Source: Lachnospiraceae bacterium (GTDB taxonomy: Bacteria; Bacillota; Clostridia; Lachnospirales; Lachnospiraceae). Taken from it: a stretch of DNA of 64,000 bases. The DNA is taken from positions 1,733 to 65,732 of the forward strand of contig JAGBEO010000001.1 in NCBI GenBank assembly GCA_017936885.1, given 5' to 3'. This document shows, piece by piece, positions 3,124-47,421 of this stretch. The notes beneath the pieces were generated by a model. The model ran no database searches. It saw nothing but the letters and a program-made list of their open reading frames with translations, and was not told the origin of the DNA. The translations under genes were made by a program, and so were the position numbers. Positions within the stretch are counted from its first letter, which is position 1. Each line of letters begins with the position of its first letter.

Positions 3124-3609
3124 TTACAGATTTTCTTTCTGCCTGAATTGCTCTATATTTTGTGCTTCGGAAGCAGATAAAAGCCACTGTTCCAGCACTG
3201 TCTTGTCCTGTTGAGAGACGATTTTCTCTCTTAAATCTGCGGGAACCTCGCCCATGTTTTCTAACAGAGTCAGGATAGAAGCTGACATTCCTTCTTTCAT
3301 TCCTTCTTTTCTGCCAATCGCGATCCCCTCGTCTCTGATATAATCATCCTCAGCCCAGCGATCCCGTTTTGCTTTCCAATAATCATCGTAGAGCCACCGC
3401 AATGACTTTCTGATGCTCATATTTTTAACCATCCTGATGGCTTCTGCCATTCCCTCATTTTTAACTGCAATCATAGCCAGATCTGCCTCCTCCCGCGCAT
3501 TAAAAAGTCTGATCCAGTCATCCACCGGTGTCCCTTGTAATGCTTTTGTCAGTTCAATAATGTGTACTTCCCATAAATCTGTCAATTCTTTTCCCCAAGT
3601 GTCGCGCAT
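3124..3609 (-). pseudogene. C-terminal fragment of a PDDEXK_2/Rpn-type putative transposase (N-terminal nuclease core missing)
   Basis: The sequence WEVHIIELTK...DDWIRLFNA...EGIAIGRKEGMKEG matches only the C-terminal half typical of this family. No PD-(D/E)XK core is encoded upstream. Confidence 0.45.
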
Positions 3610-4680: not shown

Positions 4681-5622
4681 TTATATATTTATCATTCCTC
4701 CGGCGGCGGCATATTCCTCTCTGGAGCATCCCGTTACACGCATTATGATCTGTTCATCTAACCCTTCGCGCAACAGACTGCGGAGGATGCGAATTCTTTC
4801 TTCCTGTTTGCCTTCTTTCCGGCCCACTTTTCTTCCCTCTTTCCTGCCATTCTGCTTCTCTTCCTTAAGCCATTCATCCAATGCCTTACACATAGGTTCA
4901 CCCTCCTCCTCTACCTTTCTCAACAAGACCTTATTATTCAGATGCGCTGATATTACCACTTCTGTTTCATGACTAAGCTTCTGAAACCGCTCCAGACGAA
5001 TCAGTTCTTCCAGCTTCTCCCTATCGCCTCTGCACTGCATCGCCTGAAAAAACTCCCTTAAATCCGTATGGTAATTCCGCACATCGATATAATCAGCTTC
5101 CATCAGTGGAAAACCGTAATCGTTGAACAGCACGCCAGATTGGCTTGCGACCTTTTGCGATATCCGAAGCAGCTCAGCCAGATTCTTCCTGCCGCGCCAG
5201 CGCCCTTCTCCCATATATAAAACCATCGTAATAACAGGCTTCAGACAATCTATTTCTTTCATCCGGCTCTTCTTCTCCCGATACGCCTCATAAGCCTTAC
5301 TCTTCCGATGTTCTCTGTCAATCTCCCGTATCTGGCACTCATATTCACTGGCATCGTAAACCATAATGCGCTCCGGCATGCTGTAATCAGATTCCAGCTC
5401 AATTTCCAGTCCATAACAGATATTCTGTCCGGAATCATACATCAATATGTCCCGTTCTTTCTCCCCGGATGCTGATGACAGCGACGGGTAGCTTCTTTTT
5501 AACAGTTCCAGCCTCTCTGGTACAAGAACCTTCTCTCCATGATAAATCTCCATGTTAATCAGTTCTGCAAACCTGTCTGGTCCGGCAAAGAACCTTCTGT
5601 CCAGTATATCAATTTTGCCCAT
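4681..5622 (-). CDS. Rpn (YhgA-like) family recombination-promoting nuclease / putative transposase, copy A
   Basis: PD-(D/E)XK-like core (RDILMYD ... GLEIELESDYSMPERIMVYDA, compare the YhgA motif LIEHQS..MxxR). Lys/Glu-rich C-terminal tail. Paralogous to 25391-26287. Confidence 0.8.
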   Translation of the reverse strand: MGKIDILDRRFFAGPDRFAELINMEIYHGEKVLVPERLELLKRSYPSLSSASGEKERDILMYDSGQNICYGLEIELESDYSMPERIMVYDASEYECQIREIDREHRKSKAYEAYREKKSRMKEIDCLKPVITMVLYMGEGRWRGRKNLAELLRISQKVASQSGVLFNDYGFPLMEADYIDVRNYHTDLREFFQAMQCRGDREKLEELIRLERFQKLSHETEVVISAHLNNKVLLRKVEEEGEPMCKALDEWLKEEKQNGRKEGRKVGRKEGKQEERIRILRSLLREGLDEQIIMRVTGCSREEYAAAGGMINI

Positions 5623-5674
5623 ATATCCCTTTCCGGCTGTATATACAATATACCTCGATTTGTGAAGGCAATTG

Positions 5675-5771
5675 TATCAGCCATCTTCTGATATTCGTGT
5701 GAAATATGGCTGATAACGCCGAAACCGGATATGGCCGGTTAATCAATTCCGAACGGAATTTTGAATTTCAC
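5675..5771 (-). promoter_or_regulatory. Structured 5' leader element of Rpn copy A
   Basis: Closing stem GTGAAAT (5699-5705) / ATTTCAC (5765-5771) encloses hairpins AACCGG..CCGGTT and AATTCC-GAAC-GGAATT. An alternative 10-bp stem TATCAGCCAT (5675-5684) / ATGGCTGATA (5706-5715) is also possible. The element is conserved upstream of copy B. Confidence 0.55.
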
Positions 5772-5799
5772 TGTTTATAAAACGTTTTTTATTAATTGC

Positions 5800-5828
5800 A
5801 TTATAGAAAGAATCTCATATGATGTCAA
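5800..5828 (-). promoter_or_regulatory. Consensus sigma-70-type promoter of Rpn copy A
   Basis: The minus strand reads TTGACA, a 17-nt spacer, then TATAAT (-35 at 5828-5823, -10 at 5805-5800). Confidence 0.7.
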
Positions 5829-6477
5829 TAGATTTCAGGACAAATAATGTACTAATTTTCGTTTATCTCATCTACTTTTCCCTTTTACATTGCCACATAA
5901 AACAATGCATTATACATAATATATAATACAATATTTTGTATTTTATTTATAAAGGTATTCGTTAATACACTACACTTAGTAGCATTTCTATATGGGTCAT
6001 TATTACGCCCATCTTTTTTCTACACATATTAATTCCAAAATTGTTCCGCTTCTTCTGTGTTATATCTTATAATATATTTATCTTCAATTGCTCTCTACAT
6101 CAATTCTGGTTGGTTGAAAACATCTCGGTTTCATCTTATTTTATGAAAGGTAATTTCCATGCAGGTTAAATCAACCGCTCCTTTTCAAATTTCCGGCTCT
6201 GCTCGCTCACCATACTTGCGCAAACTGACAGTCTTTTGGTCAAAACTCCATGATCCGACCTGATTCCACGTATAGCTTTCTGCATTTTTCACATAATAAA
6301 GCCGGAGGACATAGTGTGAAAAATCACACTGATGTGCTATTGTTTCACAAACTGAACGAGTTCAGTTGGTTATTTGTTTCTGAGCGAAAACAAATAGCTC
6401 TGATGGCAGATGAGAAACCATCTACGCGGATTTCTCATCGCCTCTTCGTGACAAGTCGTTCAGAAATGAGGATTAAA

Positions 6478-25005: not shown

Positions 25006-25317
25006 TATATTTCATTAATAACATCAAAAATATTCTTATATATCTCATTAATACCGCTTATCATACCATTATTTCAACAATAACTCCTCTTCAAACCAAG
25101 TCACTTATGAACATTTAAGTATCCCCTCTGGTATGATAATTTCAACCTTTTAATATTCAAATTCAAAGAATCATTTTAAAAATTAGTTCTATTTTCATTT
25201 AATAATTTTCCACCTCGATAAATTATATTCAACGTAGTATAATAGATCCGCTACAAATACATTTATTGTTAACCATACCTCGCTTTTTTGTTTCACAATA
25301 AAAAACTCCCAACATAA

Positions 25318-25337
25318 GACAATTACATACCTTACAT
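25318..25337. repeat. Left arm of a perfect 20-bp inverted repeat flanking Rpn copy B
   Basis: GACAATTACATACCTTACAT is the exact reverse complement of 26555-26574. Confidence 0.95.
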
Positions 25338-25390
25338 CAGGAGTTTCTTCCATAAATATTATTCAGCTGTATAATTTCAGACCTTTCTTC

Positions 25391-26287
25391 CTATCTTCCA
25401 GCTTCTGCAAGCACAAGCTCTTCCTTCGTGCAGTTCAGAATACTCATAATCAAATCTTCTTCCAGTCCAACCTGCAACATCTTCTGCATCGTTTGATGTC
25501 TTTCTTCTGCTCTGCCAATTTCTCTTTCTTCTTTCATCCAATCATCCAATGCTTTACACATAGGCATTCCCTCCTCTACCTGCTCAAACAGTCTGTCATT
25601 CCCCAGATGCACAGCAATCACCCGCTCTGTTTCCCGACTGAGTTTCCGAAATCTTTCCGTTTGACACAGTTCCTTTAATTGTTTCTTATCTCTACGGCAC
25701 TGCATCGCCTGAAAGAATTCCCTCAAATCTGTGCAATACTTTTCAGGCTGAACATACTCTGTCTCTATAAGCGGGAAATCATAATCCCAAAGTCTCCTGC
25801 CAAGCTGATGCTTTACCTGTTCCGAAACCCGAAACATCTCCCAAAGCTTCATTTTGCCTTCCCAGTGCCCTTCCCCTATATAAAGAACTATCGTCACAGT
25901 TGGAATCAGAAAGTCGCTTTCCTTCAAGCGGCTCTTCTTATCACGGTATTTCTTATATTCTCCTTTGTCTCTATGTGCCTTGTAAATCTCTCGTATCTGA
26001 TATTCATACTCGCTGGCATCATAAGTCATGACACGTTCCGGCATACTATAATCAGACTCTGTCTCAATTTCCAATCCATAGCAGATGTTCTGTCCGGTAT
26101 CCTGCATCAGCACATCCCTGACTTTCTCACCGGATGACGATGCAAGGGAAGGATAACTTCTCTTAAGCAACTTCAATCTATCCGGCACAAGAATTTCCTT
26201 TCCGTGATACAGTTCCGTGTTAATCAGTTCCGCAAACCGCTCCCGGTCACCAAAGAATTTTTTATCCAGTATGTCAAATTTTCCCAT
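25391..26287 (-). CDS. Rpn (YhgA-like) family recombination-promoting nuclease / putative transposase, copy B
   Basis: MGKFDILDKKFF... is collinear with copy A (same EIE.ESDYSMPER core). Start is placed at the Met equivalent to the copy A start, preceded by GGAAAGGGG. Confidence 0.8.
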   Translation of the reverse strand: MGKFDILDKKFFGDRERFAELINTELYHGKEILVPDRLKLLKRSYPSLASSSGEKVRDVLMQDTGQNICYGLEIETESDYSMPERVMTYDASEYEYQIREIYKAHRDKGEYKKYRDKKSRLKESDFLIPTVTIVLYIGEGHWEGKMKLWEMFRVSEQVKHQLGRRLWDYDFPLIETEYVQPEKYCTDLREFFQAMQCRRDKKQLKELCQTERFRKLSRETERVIAVHLGNDRLFEQVEEGMPMCKALDDWMKEEREIGRAEERHQTMQKMLQVGLEEDLIMSILNCTKEELVLAEAGR

Positions 26288-26352
26288 ATACCCCTTTCCG
26301 GCTGTATGTATCACACTACTGTACTGCATACAATATCGCAGCTTCTTACCAC

Positions 26353-26445
26353 CAGCCATTTTCATTTATTTATGTGAAATATGGCTGATAACGCCGGAAC
26401 CGGATATATCCGGTTATGCAATCCAGAACAGGATTGGAATTTCAC
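26353..26445 (-). promoter_or_regulatory. Structured 5' leader element of Rpn copy B
   Basis: Same architecture as copy A: GTGAAAT (26374-26380) / ATTTCAC (26439-26445), hairpins AACCGGAT..ATCCGGTT and CAATCC-AGAACA-GGATTG, and an alternative stem CAGCCAT (26353-26359) / ATGGCTG (26381-26387). Confidence 0.55.
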
Positions 26446-26475
26446 TATGAAAGTAACGTTCTTTCATTTAAGTGA

Positions 26476-26504
26476 ATTATAAGGAATCCTTTTTCTTATG
26501 TCAA
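26476..26504 (-). promoter_or_regulatory. Consensus sigma-70-type promoter of Rpn copy B
   Basis: The minus strand reads TTGACA, a 17-nt spacer, then TATAAT (-35 at 26504-26499, -10 at 26481-26476). Confidence 0.7.
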
Positions 26505-26554
26505 TAGGATTTACGAAAAAATATAAACTTTTTTTCGTTCACCCTGTTCTTCTA

Positions 26555-26574
26555 ATGTAAGGTATGTAATTGTC
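26555..26574. repeat. Right arm of the perfect 20-bp inverted repeat flanking Rpn copy B
   Basis: ATGTAAGGTATGTAATTGTC is the reverse complement of 25318-25337. Confidence 0.95.
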
Positions 26575-26690
26575 AAGGTACATTTATTTCATTTTTCAGG
26601 ATACACAACAAAACCTACGTCCCATTCATCTTCTATTCATCCGGCGTAGGTAGGCTCATTCGGGTAGAACATAACCGCACTACGGAAATA

Positions 26691-26701
26691 CCCCCCCCCC
26701 C
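26691..26701. repeat. Homopolymeric C11 (G11 on the minus strand) tract
   Basis: Eleven consecutive C residues in intergenic DNA between the cps conserved module and the Rpn-B unit. Confidence 0.95.
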
Positions 26702-26754: not shown

Positions 26755-26774
26755 GCTGCCACCGAAGTGGCAGC
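26755..26774 (-). terminator. Putative terminator hairpin downstream of the secreted-protein gene
   Basis: GCTGCCAC-CGAA-GTGGCAGC (8-bp stem, tetraloop), followed on the minus strand by ATGTTTTCAAAAAGG. It is preceded by the palindrome T6GAATTCA6 at 26792-26809. Confidence 0.5.
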
Positions 26775-26828
26775 ACGCCACCCCACACTCGTTTTTTGAA
26801 TTCAAAAAAGTTATCCCTTAATCAAAGA

Positions 26829-46266: not shown

Positions 46267-47058
46267 TCACGCAAGATTGAATTCCTTAAGCAGCTTCTGC
46301 TGATACTCTGTATCCTTAGCAGATCTGATAATATCCTCCATACGATTCTGCCCGGCAAGCATCTGTATCAGTTGATTAATTTCCTGTTTTCCTTCTTCTT
46401 TGATATCAAAATCATGTAACAATTCCTTCATATACTCACGCCTCCATTTCTCGTTGCGCTTTGTACGTTCAACCTCGTGGTCGATTTTCTTCGTAAATTC
46501 GCTTTCCGGCTGCTTTGTCTCTATATACTGTAAAAAAATTCTGAGTTCTTCCGGTGCATCCTCCAGATTGCCCTTTGTATTAAAAAAGAGCTTCGTCATC
46601 CCATCTTCCAGTACCAGGCTTGTATCTTCTTTACATAAGTGCTGAAACGTATACCGATACTTTCCTTCGCCAAAAGGATCGAAAGTGCAGATAAATATAA
46701 TATAGCTTTTATTGAGTGCTGTATAGGGCAGTCCTCTTTCTATCAGGCTCAAATCAAGCATTCCCTGATAGTAGCGGCTTCTCTTTGGTAATTGTTCTAA
46801 AATTTCACTGCCGTCTTTTTGCTGCATTTCGGCATTATAGACAGTGTTCATGTCATCTGCTACATAGACGTCCAAACGAACGCTTTTCCCCTGATAAGTG
46901 ATATTGATTATTTTCTGCGTTTCGGGATATTCGATATTCTCTATTTGAATTCCCAATAGAACTTCTAATGTCTTTTTACAGATTTCCTTGTTCTGCATAA
47001 CCTTTCCAAACATAAAATCGTCCCGTAACTCCAGTTCTTCGAATTGTTTCTGATTCAT
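46267..47058 (-). CDS. PDDEXK_2-type Rpn-family putative transposase/nuclease
   Basis: LRDDFMFGKVMQN...SVRLDVYVADDMNTVYNAEMQQK is the classical PD-(D/E)XK_2 (TIGR01784-like) N-terminus. Start is placed at MNQKQF, preceded by AGGAG. Confidence 0.8.
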   Translation of the reverse strand: MNQKQFEELELRDDFMFGKVMQNKEICKKTLEVLLGIQIENIEYPETQKIINITYQGKSVRLDVYVADDMNTVYNAEMQQKDGSEILEQLPKRSRYYQGMLDLSLIERGLPYTALNKSYIIFICTFDPFGEGKYRYTFQHLCKEDTSLVLEDGMTKLFFNTKGNLEDAPEELRIFLQYIETKQPESEFTKKIDHEVERTKRNEKWRREYMKELLHDFDIKEEGKQEINQLIQMLAGQNRMEDIIRSAKDTEYQQKLLKEFNLA

Positions 47059-47061
47059 ACT

Positions 47062-47099
47062 GAATCTCCTTTCTTTTGTTTGCAGTCCGCAGGAGATTC
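47062..47099 (-). promoter_or_regulatory. SD-sequestering hairpin in the leader of the PDDEXK_2 gene
   Basis: The minus-strand RNA reads GAAUCUCCU, a 20-nt loop, then AGGAGAUUC, AGU, AUG. This is a perfect 9-bp stem whose 3' arm contains the Shine-Dalgarno sequence. Confidence 0.5.
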
Positions 47100-47421
47100 C
47101 TATAAAAAATTTTTGCTCTCGGAAATCCCTGCTTTTGTTTGTTGTGAATAAAAGCATAGATTTCTTTGATAAACAGAATTGATATCAGAATCACTCATTG
47201 AAATTTAGAAAGTATGCTTTGTTTTTACTATATCAGCAACATAATATTTTATCAAGTGTTTTTATAAATATAACGTATTTTTTCTATACATTTTTACGTT
47301 TTCGGATTGATTTCGCATTAAAATGACTGTGGATATGACAGAAATATTTCAGTTGTCCAAGCAGGCGGATTGCTATATAATGGGACAGGATGAAAAAGAG
47401 CGTGCAGAAAGGATCTTTCAC

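Follow-up and report, generated by a model that had tools for sequence, protein, structure and literature searches.

What does a nuclease-like gene with its own promoter, enclosed by perfect inverted repeats, do in the middle of a capsule (cps) locus of a Lachnospiraceae bacterium, and do the repeats around it act in DNA or in RNA? The window (the whole 64-kb stretch of DNA analysed here) carries the promoter-proximal (5') repeat at 26555-26574 on the minus strand, with the gene-strand sequence GACAATTACATACCTTACAT and an arm that extends to 26549. The gene-distal (3') repeat lies at 25318-25337 on the minus strand, with an arm that extends to 25343. The preliminary description was right that GACAATTACATACCTTACAT, at 25318-25337, recurs at 26555-26574 as its perfect reverse complement (20/20). 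Extended to 26 nt, the pair still matches at 24/26 positions (92%; 25318-25343 and 26549-26574). These two copies are the only ones in the 64 kb at up to three mismatches, and none of 100 dinucleotide shuffles gave any such pair; the repeat pair is real and non-random. It sits where the conserved half of the cps locus meets the variable half. All genes in the repeat region are on the minus strand.

The segment forms a self-contained nuclease-gene cassette that lies within the capsule operon and reads in the same direction. It comprises a consensus promoter of its own, a structured leader that is conserved, a gene of PD-(D/E)XK type and a strong intrinsic terminator. Promoter, leader and coding sequence are all present between the repeats, as had been described. 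The promoter (TTGACA-17-TATAAT, 26476-26504, minus strand) matches the consensus at 12/12 positions and does not vary among 11 homologous loci; in the related cps loci, no other promoter-like site scores 12/12. Promoter-like matches in the spacer at 25006-25317 reach only 9/12, which agrees with the earlier view that it shows no comparably good promoter. Two roles considered for the 5' repeat itself were rejected: as a promoter (it contains TTGACA) it has no -10 element at usable spacing, and as an antisense terminator it has a stem of only 5-6 bp that is not conserved. An A/T-rich small inverted repeat (ACGAAAAAA...TTTTTTCGT; 26503-26548, minus strand) just upstream of the -35 element is conserved among homologous cassettes. 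Immediately beyond the 5' repeat comes the flank GTACCTT (26575-26581, minus strand). A flank of the form (G/A)(T/A)AC(C/A)TT occupies this position in 12/12 cassettes, and the conserved unit therefore starts outside the 5' repeat. The leader (26288-26470, minus strand) folds into three helices that are conserved by alignment and consensus fold; over its approximately 190 nt, the fold has a z of -5.15. One of its helices pairs TCCGGC with GCCGGA, adjoining the Shine-Dalgarno sequence. Rfam searches, at the gathering threshold and then at E values up to 10, assigned neither the leader nor the repeats to a family.

The gene itself (25391-26287, minus strand) encodes 298 aa plus a stop codon. Its start is the ATG at 26287, not the start of the longer open reading frame, and the product is identical to P0001. 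The earlier assignment to the Rpn/YhgA family holds as a sub-threshold resemblance: P0001 bears the NCBI name 'Rpn family', but scores fall short of the family cut-offs (TIGR01784, 27.6 bits against 52.1; PF04754, 17.9-18.2 bits against 21), and only 9/32 homologues reach E<0.01 with Rpn or YhgA-like models. The AF2 model of the 298-aa protein has a pLDDT of 86.8. Its closest PDB structures are PD-(D/E)XK nucleases (Card1, Can2, R2 endonuclease, MunI and Shedu), all of them weak matches (E of 0.14 or worse, TM of ~0.2). The family alignment shows no variation at D58, D63, E73 and E75, and the C-terminal tail gives a weak profile match against the PDB to the RpnA C-terminus (7TH0, 49 aa; E = 0.2). 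The window holds four PD-(D/E)XK genes. The protein shares with the E. coli Rpn (YhgA-like) nucleases weak similarity, several diverged paralogues per genome and a putatively nuclease-like fold (PMC5350276, PMC10400941), but unlike them it stays below both family cut-offs, and the E. coli rpn genes have no reported flanking repeats, conserved leader or operon-nested position. Literature searches turned up no account of repeats flanking Rpn genes.

The same repeat pair was found around 12-13 distinct cassettes in Lachnospiraceae/Eubacteriales capsule loci. An exact 20-mer scan of genome contigs returned three loci, all informative. The 19-mer scan of metagenome contigs returned 16, of which 15 are chance matches that lack the leading G and the context, and a degenerate 20-mer scan of viral contigs gave no matches. 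The question posed beforehand, whether the 20-mer always flanks Rpn genes in relatives, has a divided answer: it flanks a PD-(D/E)XK-type gene each time, but these genes belong to at least three to four divergent families and not to one. Because they bound unrelated cargo too, the repeats are not tied to one enzyme. All repeat-bounded cassettes are co-oriented with the host operon, and their proteins are 54-85% identical. Close relatives have the same cps junction without the cassette, and other loci have further cassettes between cps genes; the unit is therefore insertional.

Presence of the 5' repeat follows the context of the unit. It occurs in 12/12 cassettes that have the terminator and a co-oriented downstream gene, and is missing in the 4/4 others: copy A, L006b and P0084/L029, which have a convergent neighbour, and L025, which has no terminator. 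Copy A is the window's own example (gene, 4681-5622; with promoter and leader, 4681-5835; minus strand). It shares promoter, leader and gene family (58% identity) with the cassette, and the repeat is absent there, as had been noted; copy A also has no such terminator, and its next downstream gene is convergent. Where homologous terminators occur without a partner repeat, their apex is different (P0084) or decayed, with two mismatches (L006b). Around the members that lack the 20-mer (copy A, L006b, L025, L028 and L029), no other repeat pair rose above shuffles, with one exception in L028 that is a match between two similar palindromic terminators. Overall, the comparison supports the view that the repeats mark a boundary under selection, within which promoter, leader and nuclease-like gene form a self-contained unit.

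The element that changes the reading of this locus was overlooked at first: an intrinsic terminator stands between the cassette promoter and the FdtA-like gene. On the minus strand at 25300-25349, it consists of a 22-pair hairpin (7 G:U) with a 6-nt loop, followed by U6 templated by 25300-25305. It folds at -22.1 kcal/mol in the sense direction, against -8.0 kcal/mol for the antisense strand. The cassette promoter does point toward the FdtA-like gene, as had been claimed, but it probably does not fire freely into the operon because this strong terminator intervenes at the exit. The 3' repeat coincides with the upper 5' arm of the terminator, its loop and the first 4 nt of its 3' arm; the remainder of the 3' arm and the U-run lie outside the repeat. 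In 13/13 hairpins examined, the 3' repeat falls likewise within a terminator-like hairpin followed by a U-run, a pattern that holds despite differing cargo and stem sequences. G:U pairs make up 70/287 pairs in these 13 hairpins, sense folding energies range from -18.5 to -29.9 kcal/mol, and folds of the opposite strand are roughly half as good, which identifies them as RNA-level elements. The gene-distal repeat is thus the apex plus 5' arm of the cassette terminator.

These observations make the repeats look more like an RNA device for terminator bypass than a DNA flip-switch. In our best model, which we put forward tentatively and at somewhat less than even confidence, the upstream repeat would be a long-range anti-terminator that lets operon transcripts read through while cassette transcripts stop. 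The 5' copy lies upstream of the cassette promoter, so RNA initiated at that promoter would not contain it; the terminator would then fold and stop transcription, which would insulate the capsule genes from the strong cassette promoter. RNA derived from the operon would carry the upstream repeat, and 20-25 bp of it could pair with the 5' arm and loop of the terminator. Such a long-range duplex would serve as an anti-terminator, or as an RNase III site, and host transcription would run on into the biosynthetic genes. The repeats would work in RNA, and the inserted gene, probably selfish or defensive, would be made non-polar for the host operon.

Sequence variation among cassettes is in part consistent with pairing in RNA. 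On the sense RNA, mismatches between the arms of the 20-nt core comprise nine G:U-compatible cells against one A.C; counted as independent events, they number seven G:U against one (one-sided binomial p = 0.035), from a small set of cassettes that are not phylogenetically independent. At positions 13-25, the 5' copy and both arms of the terminator change together, with compensatory changes at positions 13, 18, 20 and 22. Positions 21-26 show no G:U bias (11 G:U against 13 A.C). In thermodynamic folds, which ignore kinetics, the long-range duplex replaces the terminator in the minimum-energy structure of the read-through transcript in 5/6 cassettes (24-25 pairs and -33 to -38 kcal/mol, against -18 to -27 kcal/mol for the hairpin), and the terminator persists in 6/6 folds of RNA initiated at the cassette promoter. 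The exception is L004, whose terminator is as stable as the duplex. Read-through is also needed, since the next cps gene follows 35-75 nt past the U-run in L058ii, L023a, L024 and L061i with no promoter-like site between.

Other features fit the anti-termination model less well. Distance counts against it: the terminator's own 3' arm is transcribed within ~30 nt, but the partner strand lies ~1.2 kb upstream. The outer 12 nt of the repeat (GACAATTACATA) is nearly invariant across all cassettes and shows no double compensatory changes; this invariance exceeds what pairing explains and suggests that a sequence-specific trans factor reads it. The ACCTT flank outside the 5' copy is not accounted for by the model. 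Moreover, the window, L024, L023a and L038 have conserved terminator-like hairpins between the upstream gene and the 5' copy (in the window, one at 26757-26775 and a second one), and little upstream transcription may therefore reach the 5' copy.

Known regulatory RNAs offer partial precedents for an anti-terminating repeat. As in the trp, pyr and T-box leader attenuators, the 5' arm of the terminator can pair with an upstream segment instead, and competitor, 5' arm and 3' arm covary three ways. Unlike in attenuators, the competitor is ~1.2 kb upstream, beyond a whole gene and its promoter, and the proposed decision would depend on where transcription originates, not on a ligand or the ribosome. 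The Bacillus eps-associated RNA is an operon-internal read-through element, and the cassette would share with it the purpose of keeping a long polysaccharide operon transcribed. Neisseria Correia elements are ~150-bp non-coding MITEs present in hundreds of copies, with ~26 bp inverted repeats, that carry promoters. Transcribed within operons, their repeats, like those of the cassette, would pair in RNA as possible RNase III substrates; unlike them, the cassette repeats lie 1.2-1.6 kb apart with a gene between.

A serious rival to the RNA model, possible although rather doubtful, is that the repeats are DNA sites for a host site-specific recombinase or for the PD-(D/E)XK cargo, so that cassettes and intervening cps segments could be swapped as exchangeable modules, with inversion not the main outcome. 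The 12-nt centre (GACA-ATTACA-TA) hardly varies, in contrast to the outer parts, and is reminiscent of the spacer plus inner arms of a tyrosine-recombinase core site; every cassette carries nuclease-like cargo. Three loci (L023, L058 and L060) contain two cassettes each, with sites ordered + - + -, and this alternating orientation means that the intervening cps segments are also flanked by inverted sites. One junction, after a 190/200-aa gene, is occupied by cassettes whose cargo differs between genomes (the window and L024 against L058i and L061i). Strain L003 matches the cassette throughout at 99.7% identity and departs from it precisely at the outer boundary of the 3' repeat. Modules bounded by dif sites are, in addition, documented (PMC6449649, PMC13141974, PMC7399989). 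Those of Acinetobacter are plasmid-borne, with 11-6-11 XerC/D sites, and the same module recurs in many contexts (PMC6449649, PMC13141974). The cassettes are like them in their varied cargo, inversely oriented ~28 bp sites and orientation alternating along arrays, but differ in that their sites are not Xer-like, they reside in chromosomal cps operons, and no cassette was seen in two different contexts among 63 loci. The one protein met with different upstream DNA (P0084) lacks the repeats, and no solo sites were seen in cassette-free relatives. To our knowledge, the site does not match Firmicutes dif. The site architecture also argues against recombination: the 5' copy is non-palindromic and so has no second binding arm, and the 3' copy is palindromic through G:U pairs only (7/11 arm positions match in DNA), hence in the RNA but not the DNA. 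The cargo families diverge too far for one shared recognition sequence, and none of the ~50 open reading frames scanned in the window encodes a recombinase.

The preliminary description had proposed a hin-like ON/OFF switch, in which the promoter-bearing segment inverts to control the capsule biosynthetic genes. The invertase would be the Rpn-like protein or a recombinase acting in trans. Such a switch is unlikely. Its appeal is clear: no consensus promoter precedes the biosynthetic genes other than the one within these repeats of 20-26 bp, ~1.2 kb apart; the repeat pair never occurs without co-oriented genes downstream; and related cps operons do have inversion switches upstream of them (L040 against L042). 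The last of these doubles as a positive control, since the same look-ups detected the inverted, tyrosine-recombinase-bearing segment in that other cps locus; the repeats of this genuine inverton are unrelated in sequence to those of the cassette. Both this inverton and the Salmonella H segment (hin/hix) resemble the cassette in having 20-30 bp repeats around a gene and a promoter beside surface-structure genes. However, 0/18 cassette instances, on 14 contigs from several samples and species, were flipped, and the outer flanks are always polarised, with ACCTT at the promoter side and the terminator 3' arm at the gene-end side. A Pfam scan of the ~50 open reading frames in the window found no serine or tyrosine recombinase, and PD-(D/E)XK proteins are not among known invertases. 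Unlike in hin/hix, the promoter sits at the far end behind a terminator (-22 kcal/mol) that separates it from the operon, and the repeat overlaps an RNA hairpin; two units per operon and mid-operon units would suit a switch poorly. Two contigs break near the repeats, L002 with its start 25 nt inside the right repeat and L059 with its start within a site. These breaks were considered as signs of inversion, a reading rejected since L002 passes unbroken through the left repeat and the assemblers' k exceeds the repeat length. The idea of an 'Rpn invertase switch' should not be propagated without read-level evidence.

The second early proposal, a compact IS-like transposable unit whose Rpn-like protein would be a transposase recognising the terminal inverted repeats, keeps its insertional aspect and little else, and we consider it very improbable. 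The cassette is indeed present or absent among relatives at one junction and turns up at several places in cps loci, each genome has several paralogues, and the family was historically annotated 'putative transposase'. However, the conserved unit runs beyond both repeats in 12/12 cassettes (by ~7 nt upstream and ~25 nt downstream), and the copies have diverged as paralogues to 54-85% amino-acid identity, with none near-identical. As had been observed, there is no consistent target-site duplication: the flanks (...CCTT| and |TTAYG...) share at most a trivial T or TT. The orientation always follows the host operon, unrelated cargo occurs within the same repeats, and many members, among them copy A, P0084 and P0035, have no repeats. 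Very unlikely, too, is that the 28-bp sites are DNA substrates of the Rpn-like cargo, cut or recombined by it so that cassettes and capsule modules are inverted, excised or exchanged; if true, such cargo-driven cutting would be a new nuclease-driven class of cassette shuffling that diversifies the capsule loci of gut Firmicutes.

In gut Clostridia and Bacteroidia, few unexplained gene families are as abundant as the Rpn/PDDEXK-type 'putative transposase' genes. Our analysis places one such lineage in a stereotyped capsule-operon cassette, in which a repeat is followed by a consensus promoter, a conserved leader RNA, the gene and, last, a terminator with the second repeat inside it, an architecture that provides concrete, testable handles on these genes. 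If the RNA model is true, the inserted gene would be both insulated and non-polar, and the terminator would respond to transcript origin over more than 1 kb, which would be unusual for bacterial attenuation and a useful design principle. If the sites act instead in DNA, they would mark a module-exchange system shaping capsule diversity in the Lachnospiraceae.

The window contains a perfect inverted repeat of 20 nt, GACAATTACATACCTTACAT at 25318-25337 and its reverse complement at 26555-26574; the arms lengthen to 26 nt at 92%. No further copy with ≤3 mismatches occurs in the 64 kb, and 100 shuffles gave none. The genes of this region are all on the minus strand, with 26555-26574 as the promoter-proximal (5') copy and 25318-25337 as the gene-distal (3') copy. 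Between them are a perfect TTGACA-17-TATAAT promoter (26504-26476), a ~190-nt leader whose fold is much more stable than those of shuffled sequences (z = -5.15), and an Rpn-like gene with its true start at ATG 26287. Copy A (4681-5622), the second such gene of the window and 58% identical, has promoter and leader as in the cassette and no repeats. The preliminary description was factually accurate, including the 20/20 pairing of the arms.

The 298-aa product has an identical counterpart, P0001, in a Lachnospiraceae MAG. We call it Rpn-like, not a tested family member. Its scores are sub-threshold against both TIGR01784 (27.6 bits; threshold, 52.1) and PF04754 (~18 bits; threshold, 21), and Rpn/YhgA models reach E<0.01 in just 9 of 32 homologues. 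An AlphaFold model built from an alignment has high confidence (pLDDT 86.8); its top PDB matches are PD-(D/E)XK nucleases, at nonsignificant E values of 0.14 or worse, and the C-terminal tail weakly matches the RpnA C terminus (7TH0, E = 0.2). Two more PD-(D/E)XK "transposase" genes of PF12784 (PDDEXK_2), one being a fragment, lie at 3124-3609 (-) and 46267-47157 (-), so that the window holds four nuclease-like genes.

The 3' copy (25318) belongs to a larger structure on the gene strand, a 22-pair hairpin to which it contributes the 6-nt loop, the upper part of the 5' arm, and 4 nt at the start of the 3' arm. With the U6 that follows (25300-49), the hairpin forms an intrinsic terminator immediately past the Rpn-like gene. 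This structure, previously overlooked, separates the consensus promoter from the FdtA-like gene, so that transcription from the promoter does not simply run on into the 17-18 genes downstream. Across the cassettes, 70 of 287 terminator pairs are G:U, and the sense-strand hairpins have about twice the stability of their opposite-strand counterparts, which marks them as structures of RNA rather than palindromes of DNA.

We counted 12-13 distinct cassettes (18 instances on 14 contigs), all co-oriented with flanking polysaccharide genes. In each, (G/A)(T/A)AC(C/A)TT borders the outer side of the 5' copy, and the 3' arm and U-run of a terminator lie beyond the 3' copy. Three related lineages (L023, L024, and L038) carry cassette, repeats, and orientation as in the window at the orthologous junction, with proteins 85, 78, and 74% identical, between a conserved CpsB-Wzz-CpsD-LytR-285aa-190aa block and a biosynthetic region that differs by lineage. 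Others are mid-operon (L023b, L058ii/L059, L060ii-L063, and L009). The cargo also varies: an AAA-ATPase_like plus PDDEXK_9 gene in L004 (a Eubacteriales MAG), a 280-aa protein with a sub-threshold Rpn match in L061i, and a 361-aa protein without family match in L058i. One cassette has lost 607 bp internally in L060 (L060 876-1450 versus L061 269-1450); its promoter is gone, as are two thirds of its cargo gene, and both repeats and the terminator are intact. More distant relatives of the 190-aa gene lack the cassette at this junction, the gene being followed directly by an initiating transferase or a NusG paralogue; the cassette is thus an insertion, though old and stable. The NusG paralogue (PF02357; L055-L057) sits at the equivalent junction, where the conserved half of the cps locus meets the variable half, and suggests that anti-termination of the processive type acts there.

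We propose that the repeats act in RNA, the 5' copy being predicted to serve as a long-range anti-terminator or as half of an RNase III stem. Transcripts of the operon include the 5' copy and would pass the terminator; those from the cassette promoter lack it and would stop there. In minimum-energy folds, transcripts with the 5' copy form a 24-25-pair long-range duplex that displaces the terminator in five of six cassettes, whereas those from the cassette promoter keep it in all six. Arm-to-arm mismatches in the 20-nt core comprise nine cells that are G:U-compatible on the sense RNA versus one A.C (as independent events, 7 versus 1, p = 0.035, from few and related cassettes), and positions 13-25 vary in concert in the 5' copy and both terminator arms. 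The 5' copy is present in 12/12 cassettes with both a terminator and a co-oriented downstream gene and absent in 4/4 that lack one or both of these; where the partner repeat is absent, the homologous terminator apex differs. At several loci the downstream cps genes start 35-75 nt past the U-run with no promoter-like site between, so that read-through must occur.

Several features fit this RNA model poorly. The 1.2-kb spacing is kinetically awkward, the duplex is not favoured in L004, pairing does not account for the conserved ACCTT flank, and the outer 12 nt of the repeat are invariant, without compensatory change. Conserved terminator-like hairpins also precede the 5' copy at junction cassettes (26757-26775). 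The invariant repeat centre fits a protein-recognised site, and a DNA-level role therefore stays a serious rival, possibly resembling dif modules, with which the cassette sites share inverse orientation and alternation along arrays.

A compact IS-like unit with terminal repeats, as suggested in the preliminary description, is weakly supported: the conserved unit outruns both repeats, no consistent target duplication accompanies it, identity among copies is 54-85% and thus short of near-identical, promoter and leader occur without repeats in many family members (copy A, P0084, P0035, and L006b), and the repeats are common to unrelated cargo. Identical copies of P0084 (314 aa; L028-L037) have upstream DNA that diverges from 170-240 nt before the start codon, into cps genes in one case and an ECF transporter in another, and many of these contigs begin exactly 349 nt upstream; recombination, or breaks in assembly, within the promoter and leader that they share may account for this. 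The hin-like ON/OFF capsule switch run by the Rpn-type enzyme is unsupported, with 0 of 18 instances (14 contigs) flipped and no serine or tyrosine recombinase among ~50 scanned window ORFs. Contig L002 spans the left repeat unbroken. The assembled contigs remove the positive case for a switch and are compatible with rare flipping. That the same look-up can reveal inversions is shown by Kineothrix-like MAGs, in which a 1.5-kb segment (L040 284-1806 versus L042; 99% identity) directly upstream of a LytR-cps operon is genuinely inverted between samples. Carrying a Phage_integrase (tyrosine-recombinase) gene between 28-nt repeats (TTTTATCGTAAAATATTTTATTTTA...) unrelated to those of the cassette, it is a recombinase-in-inverton capsule switch of a related bacterium.

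Upstream of the cassette, an intergenic homopolymer at 26691-26701 (plus-strand C11, read as G11 on the gene strand), preceded by a TTGATA hexamer, varies in length among near-identical and related loci (window, G11; L003, G10; L024 and L038, G9). Slipped-strand changes in it could make the capsule locus phase-variable. The GC-rich UUCG-tetraloop hairpin at 26757-26775 (-), GCTGCCAC-TTCG-GTGGCAGC then GTTTTC, lies 3' of the 190-aa gene after the palindrome TTTTTTGAATTCAAAAAA. It is kept at homologous positions in L023, L024, and L038, and in L023 an A:U pair has become G:C by compensatory change. Where the conserved cps block ends, the hairpin probably acts as a stability element or partial terminator.

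In the literature searched, neither repeats flanking genes of the Rpn type nor capsule-operon cassettes of this sort were described; we rate the cassette as akin to known kinds, either attenuation or site-bounded modules. The structured leader (26288-26470 and 5623-5800, both minus strand) precedes every Rpn-like homologue examined (11 loci), with proteins just 50-85% identical, and matches no Rfam family. Its invariant blocks are GTGAAAT, TTCCGGCG..TCAGCCATATTTCAC, ATGGCTG, GCCGGAAAGG adjoining the start codon, and a CGG/CCG hairpin in which C:G covaries to U:A. We regard the leader as a candidate for a new RNA, either cis-regulatory or a partner, of the Rpn-like protein family.
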